64,000 nucleotides of DNA from an uncultured Alphaproteobacteria bacterium (GCA_934203105.1 CAKPYQ010000002.1:8277-72276); one strand, 5' to 3'. Positions 548-24,223 are shown, counted from the stretch's first letter. Numbers and translations are program-made. Notes: generated from the sequence alone by a model not told the origin.

Positions 548-3296
548 TTATTTTACGCAGGTAAATTGAGCTGCTGTCGTCGGGTGAACTTCCGCTCCGT
601 TGTAGCCGTCATAAGCAAATCCCGCTTCGTTGGTACAGGAATAAGAGTAGGGCAGGCGATTGTGACGGTCAGATCCCGGATAGGCCAACCAATAATAATT
701 GATGTTATTGATGCCGCAATAATTTGTCGTTCCGGAATCAACCAATGTGTTACAAGAGACACGACCAGTAGTAACTTCTTTCAAAGTCGGCAATCGTCCA
801 CCTAGGTTGGCGCACGTTTTTTTTGCATTTGCAAAGGTTGCTTTACCAACAGGGCATTTTGGATAAACGCATCTGGTAGTGCCGGCCATGTATGAATTCA
901 GACACGTCCAGCCTGGACCGCATTCGTCTTCATAATATGGGCAGACGCCGGCAGAAGCCTCTACATATACCGTGTTGCAACCGGAACTAACGGCTTTCGG
1001 ACAGCATAAGCCGGCCTTGCTGTTATATGGCTGATCGTATGGACAGCAGGTGTTGTCAGAAGCGTTCCAAGTTCTGCTTGCCATTTTACAACAATAATCG
1101 TCCTTATCCGGATCAATAGCCGTTGAACAAGTGTTTGTTTCCGGAAAATAGTTATGACATAGCGTGCAGACGGCTTTATCTTGGCATTCTTTGTTTACAA
1201 CAACTTGACCCGTCGCACAGCAAGCAGACCCGCTCCACAGACGACCGGCAAGCGTACAGCATTCTGCTCCGTTTTCTGGAACATTGCCATAGCAGGTATT
1301 TGTTGCGGCGTCATATGCTTGGCATGTCGTGCAGACGGCTTTATCTTGGCATTCACTGTTTACAACAACTTGACCCGTCGCACAGCAAGCAGACCCGCTC
1401 CACAAGCGACCAGCCGCTGCACAGCATTCTTCGCCATTTTCTGGAATATTGCCATAACAGGTATTTGTTGCTTCTTCGTACGTTTGACATATCGTGCAGG
1501 TCGCTTTATCTTGGCAAGTGCCATTTACAACAACTTGACCCGTCGCACAGCAAGCAGACCCGCTCCACAGACGACCTGCCGCTGCGCAGCATTCTTCGCC
1601 ATTTTCTGGAACATTACCATAACAAGTATTTGTTGCTTCATCATATGCTTGGCATGTCGTGCAGACGGCTTTATCTTGGCATTCACCGTTTACAACAACT
1701 TGACCCGCGGCGCAACAGGCTGACCCGCTCCACAGACGACCGGCCGCCGCGCAACAATCCGCTCCGTTTTCGGGGATATTCCCATAACAAGTGTTTGTTG
1801 CGGCGTCATACGTTTGACATATCGAGCAAGCAGCTTTGTCTTGGCATTCACCGTTTACAACAACTTGACCTGTTGCACAGCAAGCAGACCCGCTCCACAG
1901 ACGACCAGCTGCCGCGCAACACTCCGCGCCGTTTTCGGGAATATTGCCATAGCAAGTGTTTGTTGTGGCGTCATAAACTTGACATACCGAGCAAGTGACT
2001 TTGTCTTGGCAAGTGCCATTTGCAACAACTTGACCCGTGGCGCAACAGGCTGACCCGCTCCACAGACGACCGGCAGCAGCACAACACTCCGCCCCGTTTT
2101 CGGGGATATTCCCATAACAAGTGTTTGTTGCGGCGTCATACGTTTGACATATCGAGCAAGCAGCTTTTACTTCGCAACGGCCGTTTACAACGACTTCATT
2201 GCTTTTGCATTGACACGTCGCCGTATCCGCGCCGATTGGTGTACCGGCCGGACAAGAACAACCTTTTGTTTGGGAATTTCTGACCAACGGCAAAACACAT
2301 TTGGGAATACAAACGCCGTCGTAAATTTCATTGGACGCGGTATCGCATTCGCAACGATAAGACAATAAATTGCAAATTTCCAACATTTGACAATGGCTGT
2401 TTTGGGTGCATTCAACGCAACCCGTGCCGTCAACCCAATAATTTAATCCCTCCGGACAGACGCATTTGTCGTTTTTTTCGATTTGGTTGAGCGGACAAAC
2501 GCAGGTATTATTTTCGATGATGTGGCTTTTTTCACATTCGCACGTTTCTTCCAAAGCGTGTTTAGGCGTTGACGCCGGACATACACATCGGTTGTCTCGA
2601 CAAAATTTAGGTGCCGGACACGCCGGAACACAATAGGTTACGTTTTCGACGCTCTTTAAAGAAAAATAAAAACTCATTTTTTGATGATCGTTTAAACAAA
2701 TTTCGGGGCCGCCTTGGATTTCTTTATCTTCATCATTCCAAACAGTCACTTTTTCAACTGCCGGATTTTCCAAGTTCAACGTGTGTTTACAAACCGCCTT
2801 TCTGACATCTTCAACGTCAACGACAAAGCCGTCAATTTCATCGGTTTTGAAAACTTGCATAGGAAAGGTAGAATCCGGATGTGTCAATTCGGTGTCGATT
2901 TGTTCACCGCCTTGCCAATCGTCCAAGCTTTTATTTGACGTTGCCACGCTGGTTGCATGTAACATTACATCGCTCCACAGGTCGTTAGAGGATTTTTTGG
3001 CCATGCTATATTGATAAATGACAAGCCCGCCGATGGACAGCACACCGATGATCGCCAGCACGCCCAGCATTTCAAGCATGCTACGACCTGCATTATGTCC
3101 CAAGAGGGGACGCGAAAATTTTCGCGCGGCGCGTCCCCTCTTGCCGGCGTTTTCGCAATCGTCATTCTGAGCGCTTGCGAAGAATCTCTCAACTTCCCGC
3201 GCATCATTCACCCGATCAAAAAAATGATTTTTGCAGCCCCCACGCCCCAACTCAAAAATCATTTTTTTGATGTTTAATAATTGATTTTTATTCATT
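548..3296 (-). CDS. Giant cysteine-rich secreted or surface protein with a type IV prepilin-like N-terminal motif (G|RSMLEMLGVLAIIGVLSIGG), paralogue 1
   Basis: A long ORF with AGGAGA 7 nt upstream of the ATG at 3296 (MNKNQLL...). A consensus promoter lies just upstream. The N-terminus matches the N-methylation (prepilin) motif, with Glu at +5 after Gly and an AIIG core. The body is a 55-aa, 8-Cys module repeated seven times, followed by a Cys-rich C-terminal region. Confidence 0.7.
1150..2310. repeat. Seven tandem copies of a 165-bp (55-codon) coding repeat inside the cysteine-rich gene
   Basis: The motif gcagacggctttatcttggcattc and its variants recur at about 1164, 1329, 1497, 1661, 1826, 1991 and 2156. 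The protein shows CQDKAxC..CYGNxPENGxECCAAAGRLWSGSACCAxGQVVxNG repeated seven times. The many ORFs in other frames here (for example 1123-1998 and 1181-1723) are repeat artefacts. Confidence 0.85.
3100..3270. repeat. Cluster of perfect palindromes (REP/RPE-like) lying in frame in the leader-coding region of the cysteine-rich gene
   Basis: The arm caagaggggacgcg at about 3102 pairs with cgcgtcccctcttg, with a nested cgcgaaaattttcgcg. The arm ttcgcaa is paired with ttgcgaa around 3153-3180. A 19-bp perfect inverted repeat atcaaaaaaatgatttttg / caaaaatcatttttttgat lies at 3212-3270. Confidence 0.6.
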
Positions 3297-3349
3297 TTTA
3301 TCTCCTTATTCAGCGTCGACAAATAAAAAAAGAAATAATTATCTTTTAT

Positions 3350-3379
3350 ACTATACACAACCGATTGTTTACTGTCAAG
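3350..3379 (-). promoter_or_regulatory. Near-consensus sigma70 promoter for cysteine-rich gene 1 (TTGACA, 17-bp spacer, TATAGT)
   Basis: The reverse complement reads cTTGACAgtaaacaatcggttgtgTATAGT. It sits about 50 nt upstream of the ATG at 3296. Confidence 0.5.
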
Positions 3380-3469
3380 AGGTATTTTAACGCCAAAATC
3401 AAAAATAACCGATTGAAAATAAATAAATGTTGCCGGAAAAATAGGTTTATAAAAGAAAGTATGTTAATT

Positions 3470-5245
3470 TTACGCTTTTTGAGCCATGAATAAATATCCT
3501 TGGCAGGGCGCTTTGTTTTCCTGACGCAACGTAACTTCTTGGGCTGTAATCTCATCAAAGCCGGCATTTTTCAAGGCCGAATTGATGATGTCAAAGCCGT
3601 GTTGATAACGTCCGTTCGGTTGAAGTGTTATTTGATCGGGATTTAGCGCTTTTTCCACTGTAAAAATAAAAGTGCCCCTCGATGTTAAATATTTATGTAC
3701 TTCTTTAATAATATCGTCTAATTTGTTGATATAACAAAAAACATCTGCAGCGACGATTAAATCAAAAGCTTGCGATACATTTTGCAGATAATCCAAAATG
3801 TCCATCGTAAAAAGCGCATCATAAATATGCTTTTTTTCGGCTTTTTGAATCATTTTTTGTGACATATCGACGCCCGTCAAGCGCTTGGACTCGGTGCGCA
3901 ATAAAGCGCCGCTTAAACCGGTGCCACAGCCTAAATCCAACACGTTTTCAAATGTTTTGCCCGCCGTTTTTTGCGCAATCAATTGCGGAATTTGGCAATT
4001 TAAAATTTGCATTTTTTCATCATAGGTATCCGCAAACGCATCATAAAATGTTTGCGTATAGGCAAAATCAATGTCCGTCCCCGACGATTGTCCGTTTAAA
4101 GCGTTGTTTGTATGAATTGCCAGCGGATTATCGGGAAAGTTTTTTACCCAACCGGAAGCGTAAAGTAATGCCGTTTTGGGTTCTGTTTCAAACCATTTAG
4201 GCAGCATATTTGCCAAACGCAAATGAATAATAGATTGCAGTTGTTTTTGTCCCAAAACCTTAAAATAAAGACCGGCAGCTTCTTCAAAATTGCCCAAATC
4301 TTCCAAGGCAATGGCTAAATTAAACGCAGCTTTTGTATCCGTGGGGTCGATGATAAAAACGTTTCGATACATTTCGAGTGCTTCCATAACGCGATTTTGA
4401 CGATATAACAAAGCCCCTAAATTATTGTAAGCGGCGACATTGTTGACATCTGTGCGCAATACGTCGCGATAGGCTTGTTCAGCCAAATCGGGATTTTCAT
4501 TTTCCAACAACATCGCTTTTTCAAAATAAGCGTCTGTACAAAAACGGTTTACTGCGATTGCTTTTTCAAACGCCGCAAGCGCGTCATTTTTTTGACCAAG
4601 CAGATTTAAAACTTTACCGTATTCAACAAAAAGAAAATCAACATTGTTTGCAATTTTTATTGCTTTTTCAATATATTGTAATGATGAATTGATGTTGTTA
4701 TTTAATCTGTTTTGTACCGATGTTTGATAAAGAGCCTGTACAGAATTCGGATCAATTTTTAAAGCCTCAGCCAATAAATTTTCGGCTTGATTTAAATTGT
4801 TTTGTTGCCGTTCTAACAGAGCCTTGTTCACATAAGCCAACACCATATCGGGGTTGATTTGAATGGCTTTGTCAAAAGCCGTACGTGATTTATCCAATTG
4901 TCCCATTTGGCGATAGATATTTCCCATATTATTTTGGCTTTCGGGCATATCGGCAATTTTTTCATATATAGCTAATGCTTCGTTCAACTTCCCGCTTTCC
5001 TGTAAAGCCACAGCCAAAGAATATTGAAAATCTTTGTTTTTGGGATCGGCCAGCGTGGATTGATAAAGCAATTGACACGCTTCATCAAAAATGCCTTTTG
5101 ACAAGGCAATTAAACCCAAAAAATACAGCGCTTGCGGCAACGCCGGCGATAAATTTAAAACTTGGCGAAAGGCCTTTTCGGCTTCGTCTAATTGTCCGGC
5201 CGCATACAGGTTAATTGCGTTTGATAGTAAGAGGTTTTGATTCAT
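3470..5245 (-). CDS. TPR-repeat protein fused to a C-terminal class I SAM-dependent methyltransferase domain
   Basis: The N-terminal roughly 400 aa consist of repeated 34-aa TPR-like units. The C-terminus carries VLDLGCGTGLSG (SAM motif I) and DLIVAADVFCY (motif II/III). Confidence 0.7.
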   Translation of the reverse strand: MNQNLLLSNAINLYAAGQLDEAEKAFRQVLNLSPALPQALYFLGLIALSKGIFDEACQLLYQSTLADPKNKDFQYSLAVALQESGKLNEALAIYEKIADMPESQNNMGNIYRQMGQLDKSRTAFDKAIQINPDMVLAYVNKALLERQQNNLNQAENLLAEALKIDPNSVQALYQTSVQNRLNNNINSSLQYIEKAIKIANNVDFLFVEYGKVLNLLGQKNDALAAFEKAIAVNRFCTDAYFEKAMLLENENPDLAEQAYRDVLRTDVNNVAAYNNLGALLYRQNRVMEALEMYRNVFIIDPTDTKAAFNLAIALEDLGNFEEAAGLYFKVLGQKQLQSIIHLRLANMLPKWFETEPKTALLYASGWVKNFPDNPLAIHTNNALNGQSSGTDIDFAYTQTFYDAFADTYDEKMQILNCQIPQLIAQKTAGKTFENVLDLGCGTGLSGALLRTESKRLTGVDMSQKMIQKAEKKHIYDALFTMDILDYLQNVSQAFDLIVAADVFCYINKLDDIIKEVHKYLTSRGTFIFTVEKALNPDQITLQPNGRYQHGFDIINSALKNAGFDEITAQEVTLRQENKAPCQGYLFMAQKA

Positions 5246-22348: not shown

Positions 22349-24223
22349 ATGAAAAACAATCAATGCAATAATAAAATCAATCAAACCGGCCGGTCGATGC
22401 TTGAAATATTAGCGGTGCTTTTAATTATGGGAATGCTGTCGATTGCGGCATTATTGGGCTTTAAATACGCGATGGACAACCTCAAAGCGAACGAGATTTT
22501 AAATAATGTGCGTTTGGCGGCAGCGGTCGTTTTGCAACATGAAGAAATCTTGGTTGAAAGCGACGGAAGCATTGATATTTCAGAATTTCAAAAAACAATT
22601 TTGTACGATATGTCGGCCGAGCAGGTGGGGGAAGAATATGCTTTTGCGATCAATGTGTTTGAAGTTCAAAAAGGCGTTTGCGATGCGGTTATTCGCCGTG
22701 CTGATAATCAATATTTGATTCGTTTGGACGGGGAAGATACGACCGAATGCCAAGACAAAAACAAAATGCAATTTATATTTAATATGGACGAGGCGTGTCC
22801 TTCAAATTGTCCGCCGGAGCGTTGTTGTAATAAAAACAAGTGTTGCAGCGAAGGTCAAACGTGCATTAACGGCCGGTGTGTAGATGAAAATTTATGTGAC
22901 AATTGGGACACACAACAAGTTTGCGGAACGTCGACATGTTGTGATAAAGACAAATTTTGTTGCGCGGATAAATGTTGTGAAACACCGTTTTGTTCGGCGG
23001 ATCAAAGCAAATGTTGCGGAACGGCTTTGTTGGGGGGCGTTGAAACGAACTTGATTCCCGACGCAAGCAATCCGTCCGAATGCGTTTGCCCCACGGTGAA
23101 TGGAACCCGGCTGGTATTAAAAAACGGTTCTTGCGAATGTCCGGACGCCGGCTTTACTTTGGTCGATGGGGCGTGTGTTCGCTTTAATTGCGACGAAGGA
23201 ACGGGCGGTAATACATACGAATGCTATATTAATGGTAAATTGTGCGGACATTTTTGTACTGCCGAAGCTTCGGATTGTGAAAACGGTATTTGCCGGCAAA
23301 AAGATTGTGTTGCAGGACAACCGTTGCTTTACCATGGTCATCCGGGATATTATTACGGATGCAAAAAAGAATATAACTCTGATGTAACATGTTATATGAC
23401 GACCAAAGATGGTGTATACAAGTGCTATCGAAATGATGATGATTTATTGTGTGCTCTAGCAAAAATGAATGCGTCGGGTGAGCTGTATTTTATCTATGGA
23501 ACATGCGACGATAACATTTGCAAAGCGATTGATCCTAATGCTGTGTTTATGCGTTGGGGGGATGCAAACAGCTATAATGGCGGGTGTTTGTTTGATGATA
23601 ACTTGTTGTGTACGCCTTACGGCACGAAATATTGGACTTGTTTTAAAAACGGCTATAAATGCGGTACGGAGTGCACAAATCCGTTAAACTGCGGAACTTG
23701 CAACGATTATGATTGTCCGGACGGATTGAGCTATAACAGAGAGTTAAAACGTTGTGAAACAGAAACTTATTACTGTGACGTAACACAAGGAAAATGGTCA
23801 GAAGTTTGTTATATGAAAAGTGACAATTCGCGATGCGCTACAATTAACAGCAATGCTCCTGAGAAGGGTTTTGCTTACGGAACATGCGTGGCTGATAAAT
23901 GTACCGCTGCGGGTATGAAGTTTGCATATGTGAGCGAGGAAAATTATTGGGGCTGCCTTGATGAGAATACGGGGATTAGTTGTATCCCTAATTATTCTGT
24001 ATGCTATTATAATGGCAAGCTTTGCGGAAACTATTGTCAATTGGGAGGGACAGAGTGCAAACAAGCTTATCAAAAGCAATGTGCCGCAGCGGGATACTGC
24101 CCGCAAACCGGTTATTTAATTGATGATTGCGTATGCGATGGGCAAGAAAGCGAAGTTGACGGCAAACGTTATTGTTGTCCGGAGGGACATCGATATGAAA
24201 ACGGCGCTTGCACGATGTTGTAA
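22349..24223 (+). CDS. Giant cysteine-rich secreted or surface protein with a type IV prepilin-like N-terminal motif (MKNNQCNNKINQTG|RSMLEILAVLLIMGMLSIAALLGF), paralogue 2
   Basis: It has a short basic leader ending in Gly, Glu at +5 and a hydrophobic helix. A domain of about 100 aa follows. The next roughly 480 aa contain about 90 Cys in irregular Cys-rich modules. Confidence 0.7.
   Translation: MKNNQCNNKINQTGRSMLEILAVLLIMGMLSIAALLGFKYAMDNLKANEILNNVRLAAAVVLQHEEILVESDGSIDISEFQKTILYDMSAEQVGEEYAFAINVFEVQKGVCDAVIRRADNQYLIRLDGEDTTECQDKNKMQFIFNMDEACPSNCPPERCCNKNKCCSEGQTCINGRCVDENLCDNWDTQQVCGTSTCCDKDKFCCADKCCETPFCSADQSKCCGTALLGGVETNLIPDASNPSECVCPTVNGTRLVLKNGSCECPDAGFTLVDGACVRFNCDEGTGGNTYECYINGKLCGHFCTAEASDCENGICRQKDCVAGQPLLYHGHPGYYYGCKKEYNSDVTCYMTTKDGVYKCYRNDDDLLCALAKMNASGELYFIYGTCDDNICKAIDPNAVFMRWGDANSYNGGCLFDDNLLCTPYGTKYWTCFKNGYKCGTECTNPLNCGTCNDYDCPDGLSYNRELKRCETETYYCDVTQGKWSEVCYMKSDNSRCATINSNAPEKGFAYGTCVADKCTAAGMKFAYVSEENYWGCLDENTGISCIPNYSVCYYNGKLCGNYCQLGGTECKQAYQKQCAAAGYCPQTGYLIDDCVCDGQESEVDGKRYCCPEGHRYENGACTML

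Follow-up and report, generated by a model that had tools for sequence, protein, structure and literature searches.

We analyzed a 64,000-nucleotide (nt) stretch of DNA from an uncultured Alphaproteobacteria bacterium (GCA_934203105.1, CAKPYQ010000002.1:8277-72276), henceforth referred to as the window, and focused on a prepilin-like surface-protein gene on its minus strand (548..3295, 915 aa). The region encoding the leader of this gene contains a palindrome-rich segment that is a mosaic of three repeat modules, named H1, E1, and H2, and not a single insert. We consider it probable that the modules are selfish palindromic repeats of the kind represented by repetitive extragenic palindromes (REPs) and bacterial interspersed mosaic elements (BIMEs), which behave like Rickettsia palindromic elements (RPEs) in that they lie in frame within a disposable prepilin leader. 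The comparisons suggest that the leader has grown from ~14-26 codons to 70 through short palindromic repeats, each of which belongs to a multi-copy family. The original prediction, made from the sequence of the window, had described one RPE-like mobile element of ~190 bp inserted in frame. The recurrence of the repeats and their in-frame position were upheld, whereas the single insert gave way to a mosaic of at least three independent modules.

Palindromic modules within the leader-coding region

The gene starts at an ATG at 3295-3293, the start called in every allele by the gene callers, and stops at 548. The start codon had been placed at 3296; the good ribosome-binding site and consensus promoter predicted with it were both recovered, the promoter in near-consensus form. 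The ribosome-binding site, as read from the sequence, is AAGGAG (3307-3302), separated from the ATG by a 6-nt spacer (3293..3307, minus strand), and the promoter-like site is of the sigma-70 type (TTGACA-17-TATAGT; 3350..3378, minus strand) and matches the consensus at 11 of 12 positions. The promoter region is partly kept in paralogues (AAACnATCGnTTnTGTA...TAT). As had been claimed, the minus-strand frame is open from this ATG through all modules into the conserved motif, G/RSMLEMLGVLAIIG (the slash marks the cleavage site). The leader-coding region (3086..3295, minus strand; MNKNQLLNIKKMIFELGRGGCKNHFFDRVNDAREVERFFASAQNDDCENAGKRGRAARKFSRPLLGHNAG) comprises 70 codons, the last of which is that of the cleavage-site Gly (3088-3086). 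The leader thus has 70 aa with the Gly counted and 69 without it, not 76. The comparison gene, paralogue 2 (22349..24223, plus strand), has a leader of 14 aa including the Gly (MKNNQCNNKINQTG/RSMLE), in agreement with the original prediction, and this leader is without palindromes. The excess over paralogue 2 is ~56 codons, not the 63 first estimated.

An inverted-repeat search confirmed the presence of three inverted repeats between 3101 and 3271. Module H1 (3215..3271) is AT-rich and 57 bp long, with perfect 19-nt arms (3215-3233 and 3253-3271; ATCAAAAAAATGATTTTTG and CAAAAATCATTTTTTTGAT) around a 19-nt GC-rich loop, and encodes IKKMIFELGRGGCKNHFFD. Module H2 (3101..3143) is GC-rich and 43 bp long, with perfect 14-nt arms (3101-3114 and 3130-3143) in the arrangement CAAGAGGGGACGCG, 15-nt loop, CGCGTCCCCTCTTG; its sense strand encodes KRGRAARKFSRPLL. 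Module E1 (3161..3190, minus strand; sense GAGAGATTCTTCGCAAGCGCTCAGAATGAC) corresponds to the 3' half of a hairpin element that is longer when complete, and encodes ERFFASAQNDD. The complete two-armed E1 is found in the leader of P0013 at locus L043 (L-numbers designate retrieved metagenome contig loci and P-numbers listed family proteins). E1 was counted once in the window by a pattern search, for a chance expectation of 0. A further module, H3 (AAATGTGCGGCGCG, 16-17-nt loop, CGCGCCGCACATTT), occurs in other alleles and is absent from the window.

The third inverted repeat (3152..3181) is weaker. Its arms (3152-3161 and 3172-3181; TTCGCAATCG and CGCTTGCGAA) match at 90% and bridge E1 and the linker preceding H2. 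This is the TTCGCAA/TTGCGAA pair of the original prediction, which is present but is not the strong palindrome it was taken for, and because it crosses a module junction it is probably incidental. The palindrome said to be nested in the 14-bp hairpin proved to be misplaced: the 16-nt CGCGAAAATTTTCGCG (3111-3126) overlaps one arm and the loop and is not symmetrically nested. Apart from H1 and H2, the window contains no perfect hairpin with a stem of ≥14 bp and a loop of ≤30 nt, and no comparable hairpin was found in 30 composition-preserving block shuffles.

Dispersal of the modules

A dispersed repeat family was expected to recur elsewhere, and it does: one related assembly contains more than 25 H1 copies at scattered sites, and H2, H3, and E1 are found, in both orientations, in leaders, upstream regions, and 3' flanks. 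A scan of metagenome contigs for exact H1 arms yielded 26 loci, mostly from assembly ERZ1023658. The 35 H1 copies that we examined, of which more than 25 lie on many ERZ1023658 contigs, have unrelated flanks and a common loop consensus, CGCCCCCGAACCCTATAC, read directly or as the reverse complement. The ERZ1023658 organism is a close relative (GroEL identity to the window 93% for the protein and 83% for the nucleotide sequence). Its H1 copies lie in intergenic islands of unusual length (0.6-2.3 kb) whose neighboring genes occur in all relative orientations. Further H1 copies lie upstream of paralogues. The ERZ1023658 islands (L017-L042) also contain at least 10 GC-hairpin stem subfamilies mixed with H1, with ~70 copies in ~230 kb.

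H2 itself or a close variant was found, in one orientation or the other, in the leaders of L011, L016, L043, L051, and L015; H2-type copies also lie upstream of the L015 promoter and just past the stop codon in L011 (11556). The H2 superfamily comprises ~70 hairpins among the examined loci. In its members, a 12-14-bp stem with CGCG at its end carries an asymmetric loop in which an A/T-rich part is followed by CGCGCGG, and the stems of the subfamilies covary in a fully compensatory manner (e.g., GGGA:TCCC vs CCAG:CTGG). E1 copies of either orientation were seen at L011, L016, L046, and L050, both in leaders and in non-coding DNA, and H2, H3, and E1 are found upstream of promoters in L011, L015, and L016. 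E1 arrays are present at L046 (3600-4400), and more module copies lie in the L050 intergenic spacer (~2000-2200). Mosaic arrays that combine GC-rich hairpins with H1 and E1 were found at L017 (1900-2700), at L046 (3600-4440), and upstream of paralogues.

All copies seen outside the gene family are non-coding. Candidate coding copies of H1 in the related genome were rejected, as the five longest open reading frames spanning H1 look like translated repeats and not like proteins. Among the copies seen there were no insertions in unrelated genes; coding copies are found only in leaders of the G/RSMxEML family described below, and a search with the leader peptide matched nothing beyond leader-bearing or orphan cassettes.

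Strain alleles at the locus

We retrieved allele contigs from human-gut metagenome assemblies (Hadza and other cohorts) via the neighboring AccB gene, so open-reading-frame calling did not bias the choice of alleles. Three alleles were found. The short allele (L009, L010) has a leader of 44 aa with H1 only, and 49 nt replace the variable block. The window allele (the window and L001) has the 70-aa leader with H1, E1, and H2. In the long allele (L002-L005), the leader reaches 117 aa and carries H1, E1, and H3, to which are added 140 nt that hold an AT-rich hairpin and a duplicate of a segment of the 5' untranslated region; here the 3' 80 nt of the variable block are swapped for 221 nt comprising H3 and the AT-rich hairpin. 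The product is 797, 852, or 915 aa long depending on the strain.

The allele flanks are 96-100% identical. All alleles share one ATG, differ in length by multiples of three, and contain no stop codons. The modules are present or absent at the same locus in steps that preserve the frame, a result in favor of the original prediction. The strain-variable block (3080..3203, minus strand) includes E1, the linker, H2, and a tail with the Gly-Arg-Ser codons; of the modules, only E1 and H2 are polymorphic at this locus. The exact 915-aa product is encoded on at least three contigs of 50-200 kb, so the window allele is not an assembly accident, and the other two alleles were each seen again in 2-4 independent samples.

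Leader lengths across the gene family

The family signature G/RSM[LVI]EMLGVLAIIG is present in 118 of the 120 listed homologues. Leaders of 30-124 aa occur in 44 of these 118 members, and in 26 of 100 when the window gene's own leader lineage is set aside. Most family leaders have 5-14 aa, and the median is 10 aa, own lineage excluded. At least 19 leaders of the lineage in the database combine the modules differently, all in frame, within a set biased by its makeup of called open reading frames; the P0008 leader, for example, carries H3 and H2 together. Independent in-frame hairpins occur in leaders of other lineages at L032, L015/P0066 (H2-type, in the opposite orientation), and L012. The L012 leader contains arrays of GTCAT...ATGAC palindromes upstream of G/RSMIEML, with ~180 codons open in one of three frames. 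More distant long leaders (P0055, P0057, P0061, P0067, P0090, P0099, P0103) reuse the words CHSGLRAGIQR, CHAELVSAS, FLRKRESS, KQVQNDK, and MTRMISQSG, which look like GC-rich palindromic repeats, of kinds common across other bacteria, read as protein. The homologues named at NCBI come from "uncultured Alphaproteobacteria bacterium" metagenome-assembled genomes, and one of them carries the name "type II secretion system protein". A scan of species-representative genomes with the leader and N-terminus recovered three distant family members and no long-leader orthologue.

We compared the N-terminus with class III (type IV prepilin) signal peptides. The predicted core (3020..3088, minus strand) consists of Gly at -1 followed by R S M L E(+5) M L G V L A I I G V L S I G G L V I. 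The cleavage motif, read as G/RSMLEMLGVLAIIGVLSIGG, lies 70 codons past the ATG, and the Gly-ended leader is followed by RSMLE(+5)MLGVLAIIGVLSIGGLVI, a hydrophobic stretch of ~21 residues with Glu at +5, as in class III signal peptides. It differs from them in having Arg instead of Phe or Met at +1 and in the length of the leader, which is 70 aa here and up to 124 aa in relatives. Class III leaders, including the long ones of type IVb and Flp prepilins, have 6-26 (up to ~30) aa (PMC4471445). The window gene falls outside the 6-26-aa range, whereas the leader of paralogue 2, at 14 aa, and the median for the family, at 10 aa, fall within it. The TIGR02532 model (IV_pilin_GFxxxE) scored 14.7 bits for a cut-off of 16.3, so the prepilin assignment is plausible and sub-threshold; matches to the PpdD and GspH models were weak. 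Searches with the full 915-aa protein gave no Pfam match and nothing useful from NCBIfam. Family members are scattered singly among housekeeping genes, with no pilus or secretion machinery nearby at the examined loci.

A proposed model for insertions in the leader

Several features argue that the leader is translated. The start of the short-leader paralogue 2 can be aligned with the ribosome-binding site, the ATG, and the initial ~5 codons, and identity between unlinked paralogues rises to ~93% exactly from the ribosome-binding site on. No downstream in-frame start with a ribosome-binding site is common to all alleles, whose tails differ; the only downstream candidate in the window is a TTG in the 3' arm of H2, which lacks a ribosome-binding site and is missing from alleles without H2. 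The alternative start at a downstream Met, raised in the original prediction, is thus not conserved across alleles. A compensated frameshift in the T-tract of H1 at L043 was considered as evidence of coding constraint and left unused, as three substitutions without an indel explain it equally well.

In the explanation that we favor, translation would begin at ATG 3295 and read through the hairpins. The basic hydrophilic extension (14 K/R vs 8 D/E residues, net +6), which fits the positive-inside rule, would remain cytoplasmic, and prepilin peptidase would cut after the conserved Gly. Class III leaders are hydrophilic, stay in the cytoplasm, and are removed after Gly-1 (PMC4471445). Insertions upstream of the removed Gly would leave the mature protein unchanged and would therefore be tolerated, with selection keeping only in-frame, stop-free variants. 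Recombination would add, remove, and swap modules, acting between copies of the repeats as well as between paralogues' 5' ends. Such recombination could produce both the strain length alleles and the near-identical leader block on unlinked paralogues.

Some observations weigh against this explanation. The modules are stop-free in several frames (H1 lacks stop codons in 2-4 of six frames), so the open frame is weaker evidence than usual. At L051 (3001-3450), a leader of the window type has a TGA at codon 40, created within E1 (GAGAGA to AACTGA), and the pilin-like body is intact in the same frame to the contig end; this is either a pseudogene allele or an indication that a downstream start is possible. 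On balance, we infer from the sequences that the leader is translated and that L051 carries a nonsense allele. Transcription, translation, and cleavage are all deduced from sequence. No gene for a prepilin peptidase, or for secretion or pilus machinery, is present in the Pfam-annotated gene lists of the examined loci, including those around both paralogues, and the N-terminal motif has Arg at +1 and scores just under the TIGR02532 cut-off. No module recurs within the window, as judged by blastn-short, a generic hairpin scan, and the E1 pattern search. Copies seen in the window organism's own species lie mostly in or near 5' cassettes of the gene family, so recombination among paralogues fits at least as well as transposition. 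Across the flanks of the 35 H1 copies, we found neither a consistent target-site duplication nor an empty site. Finally, nucleotide identity between paralogues is 93% for the leader block, against 74-78% for the pilin helix and ~73% for the promoter region, a pattern that is unexpected for neutral filler and points to gene conversion of paralogue 5' ends or to recent spread of a cassette.

Alternative explanations

A different account holds that the promoter, ribosome-binding site, ATG, and hairpin-bearing leader form a functional cassette and the modules are recombination sites that switch or homogenize the expression of pilin-like genes. This would proceed by gene conversion, or by deletion or inversion between inverted copies of H1, E1, or H3, and would serve phase or antigenic variation, so that the modules would not be passive selfish DNA. 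We regard this account as unlikely. A more specific form of it, which we hold to be quite unlikely, makes the modules the joints of a promoter-leader cassette of ~450-700 bp that recombines among unlinked pilin-like genes and can be deleted, or inverted between H1, E1, and H3 copies. The high identity of the leader block relative to both flanks (73-78%) speaks for such an account, and the leaders are modular mosaics, as in P0008. At L011 (9560-10200) and L016 (9690-10300), the promoter and ATG are bracketed by E1, H3, and H1 upstream and by inverted H1, inverted E1, and then H3 or H2 downstream, and an H2-like hairpin directly follows the stop codon of the L011 paralogue. Orphan cassettes at L046 (3800-4200) and L050 (2830-3200), both from ERZ15610014, consist of promoter, ribosome-binding site, ATG, H1, E1, and H3 with no gene body; judging from their sequences, they could be deletion remnants of repeat recombination or a sign of a switching system. 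In the L012 leader, a (CT)7 tract displaces the ATG from the frame by one repeat unit. Set against these points, no contig among those observed has an inverted or switched configuration, and no recombinase was identified. The window locus is without an upstream repeat block, because a tetratricopeptide repeat (TPR) gene ends 175 nt upstream. The paralogues are dispersed among housekeeping genes and unclustered, and hairpins of these families also abound in the related genome in plain intergenic DNA, unlinked to the paralogues. With no switched configuration and no upstream block in the window, the cassette account is kept as a rival to the favored one. Its closest analogues are vsa of Mycoplasma pulmonis and pilE/pilS of Neisseria, in which surface proteins are switched via an expression site or leader cassette. 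By analogy, the conserved block of promoter and 5' leader on divergent bodies, with short repeats at the junction, may resemble these systems; here, however, no switching was observed, the loci are unlinked, and none of the genes was identified as a recombinase, so the analogy applies to the cassette account only.

According to another account, the hairpins are an untranslated structured 5' leader with a regulatory or mRNA-stabilizing role, translation starts at the TTG in H2 (MGHNAG/RSMLE) or at the Met of RSMLE, and the open frame is incidental. When folded from the predicted start of transcription, the RNA shows significant structure (z = -3.16), with both hairpins in the centroid structure. 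In other strains, one change in an arm produces a sense-strand G.U pair. The L051 allele and the several stop-free frames of the modules are also compatible with an untranslated leader, and gene callers prefer the longest open reading frame. Nevertheless, we judge this account to be improbable. The TTG is buried in a 14-bp GC-rich stem, and the H2-less alleles (L002, L009) have no equivalent start. All indels among alleles and paralogues are multiples of three, the upstream ATG with its ribosome-binding site shares ancestry with the start of the short-leader paralogue, and the ~180 codons at L012 are open in only one of three frames. Rfam searches of the whole window at gathering thresholds, and of 2900-3500 at E values up to 10, returned only tRNAs and chance-level matches (E ≥1), on which basis we reject a riboswitch or known leader RNA; no terminator-like hairpin with a U tract was found within 3100-3300. 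The attenuator suggested as an alternative in the original prediction is thus unsupported. A chance cluster of palindromes or an artefact of metagenome assembly is effectively refuted. The window does come from a metagenome scaffold, and repeats can misjoin assemblies, but the shuffles contained no comparable hairpin, the alleles recur on long contigs and in independent samples as described above, and a typical sequencing read is longer than any of the modules (up to 57 bp).

Some of these loci have further features. The layout of L011 and L016, which are unlinked paralogues, resembles an invertible promoter switch. The orphan cassettes stop after 65-66 codons, and the L046 version is present on 8 contigs. 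At L012 (CAKQLP010000003, a Hadza-metagenome alphaproteobacterium; minus strand, ~1183 to 560), the ribosome-binding site and ATG (MKNKLIKG) are followed by the (CT)7 tract. The ATG frame runs into a stop, and loss of one CT unit would join it to the ~180-codon open frame. The arrangement has the look of an on/off switch worked by strand slippage, unless the repeat was misassembled.

Comparison with known palindromic repeats

We compared the modules with described families of small repeats. REPs and BIMEs of gamma-proteobacteria are extragenic, untranslated palindromes with a GTAG head that are mobilized by the REP-associated tyrosine transposase (RAYT). The modules are similar to them in being imperfect palindromes of 35-60 bp with a high copy number, subfamilies, mosaic arrays, both orientations, and a location in long intergenic regions. 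They differ in that the window copies lie within an open reading frame, although most other copies are extragenic, and in that the GC-hairpin superfamily has a conserved asymmetric loop with variable covarying stems. No GTAG head is visible at the module ends. In sequence organization, as single hairpins of 40-60 bp that occur in clusters, the modules resemble REP/BIME units more closely than RPEs of 100-150 bp.

In-frame palindromic repeats within genes are known chiefly from Rickettsia. The likeness to RPEs rests on behavior and was assessed against the description of RPEs. The shared features are short multi-copy palindromes in an alphaproteobacterium, located in frame within genes, and a tolerated extra peptide segment. 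According to one account (PMC10969869), RPEs (Ogata et al. 2000) are ~100-150 bp long, encode a conserved peptide per family, are found in many unrelated housekeeping genes, and are retained in the mature protein. Here, in contrast, the units are single hairpins of 43-57 bp combined as mosaics, and coding copies are confined to the cleavable leader of one gene family. MITEs, the miniature inverted-repeat class of transposable elements, can also be fused in frame with host genes, as with intragenic enterobacterial repetitive intergenic consensus (ERIC) sequences, Correia elements or Neisseria miniature insertion sequences (NEMIS), and pneumococcal BOX elements, which are transcribed and translated within the host gene (PMC10969869). 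Like MITEs, the modules are small, non-autonomous repeats with terminal inverted repeats (19 bp in H1). Unlike MITEs, H1 is only 57 bp long, no target-site duplication or parent insertion sequence can be defined, and the modules behave like a recombining set.

Other features of the gene and related loci

The gene body that follows the leader within 548..3295 (minus strand) comprises a pilin-like N-terminal helix, a divergent domain, Cys-rich repeats, and a lectin-like C-terminus. The Cys-rich repeats are tandem units of 165 nt (55 aa) in ~6-7 copies at 1155-2190 (minus strand), with 78-90% identity. The C-terminus (548-900, minus strand) resembles a C-type-lectin or formylglycine-generating enzyme (FGE)-like domain (...ANLGGRLPTLKE...NYYW...). 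We considered a diversity-generating retroelement and rejected it, as there is no template repeat for the lectin-like C-terminus within the 64-kb window. A secreted protein of 166 aa encoded at L017 (1333-1833, minus strand) has a lectin-like domain similar to this C-terminus. At L046 (4462-4878, minus strand), a family member of 138 aa with a 6-aa leader (MKNEYG/RSMIEML) is convergent on the orphan cassette.

Implications for the gene family

If the favored explanation is correct, the disposable leader would be a safe site for extra sequence, which offers a concrete and testable reason why insertions survive. The predicted class III signal peptides of 70-124 residues would be several times longer than the 6-26 residues described, which is relevant to targeting and to the specificity of the peptidase. 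For annotation, the odd long N-termini in this family would be read as repeat-derived and not as new domains. The shared cassette, the orphans, and the dinucleotide tract of a relative raise the possibility that adhesin-like expression is switched by recombination or slippage; if the cassette account were true, this would be an undescribed surface-protein switching system with its recombination sites inside a disposable leader peptide. On the favored explanation, in-frame behavior of the RPE type would extend to uncultured alphaproteobacteria of the human gut, with REP-like modules and confined to a leader that is cleaved.

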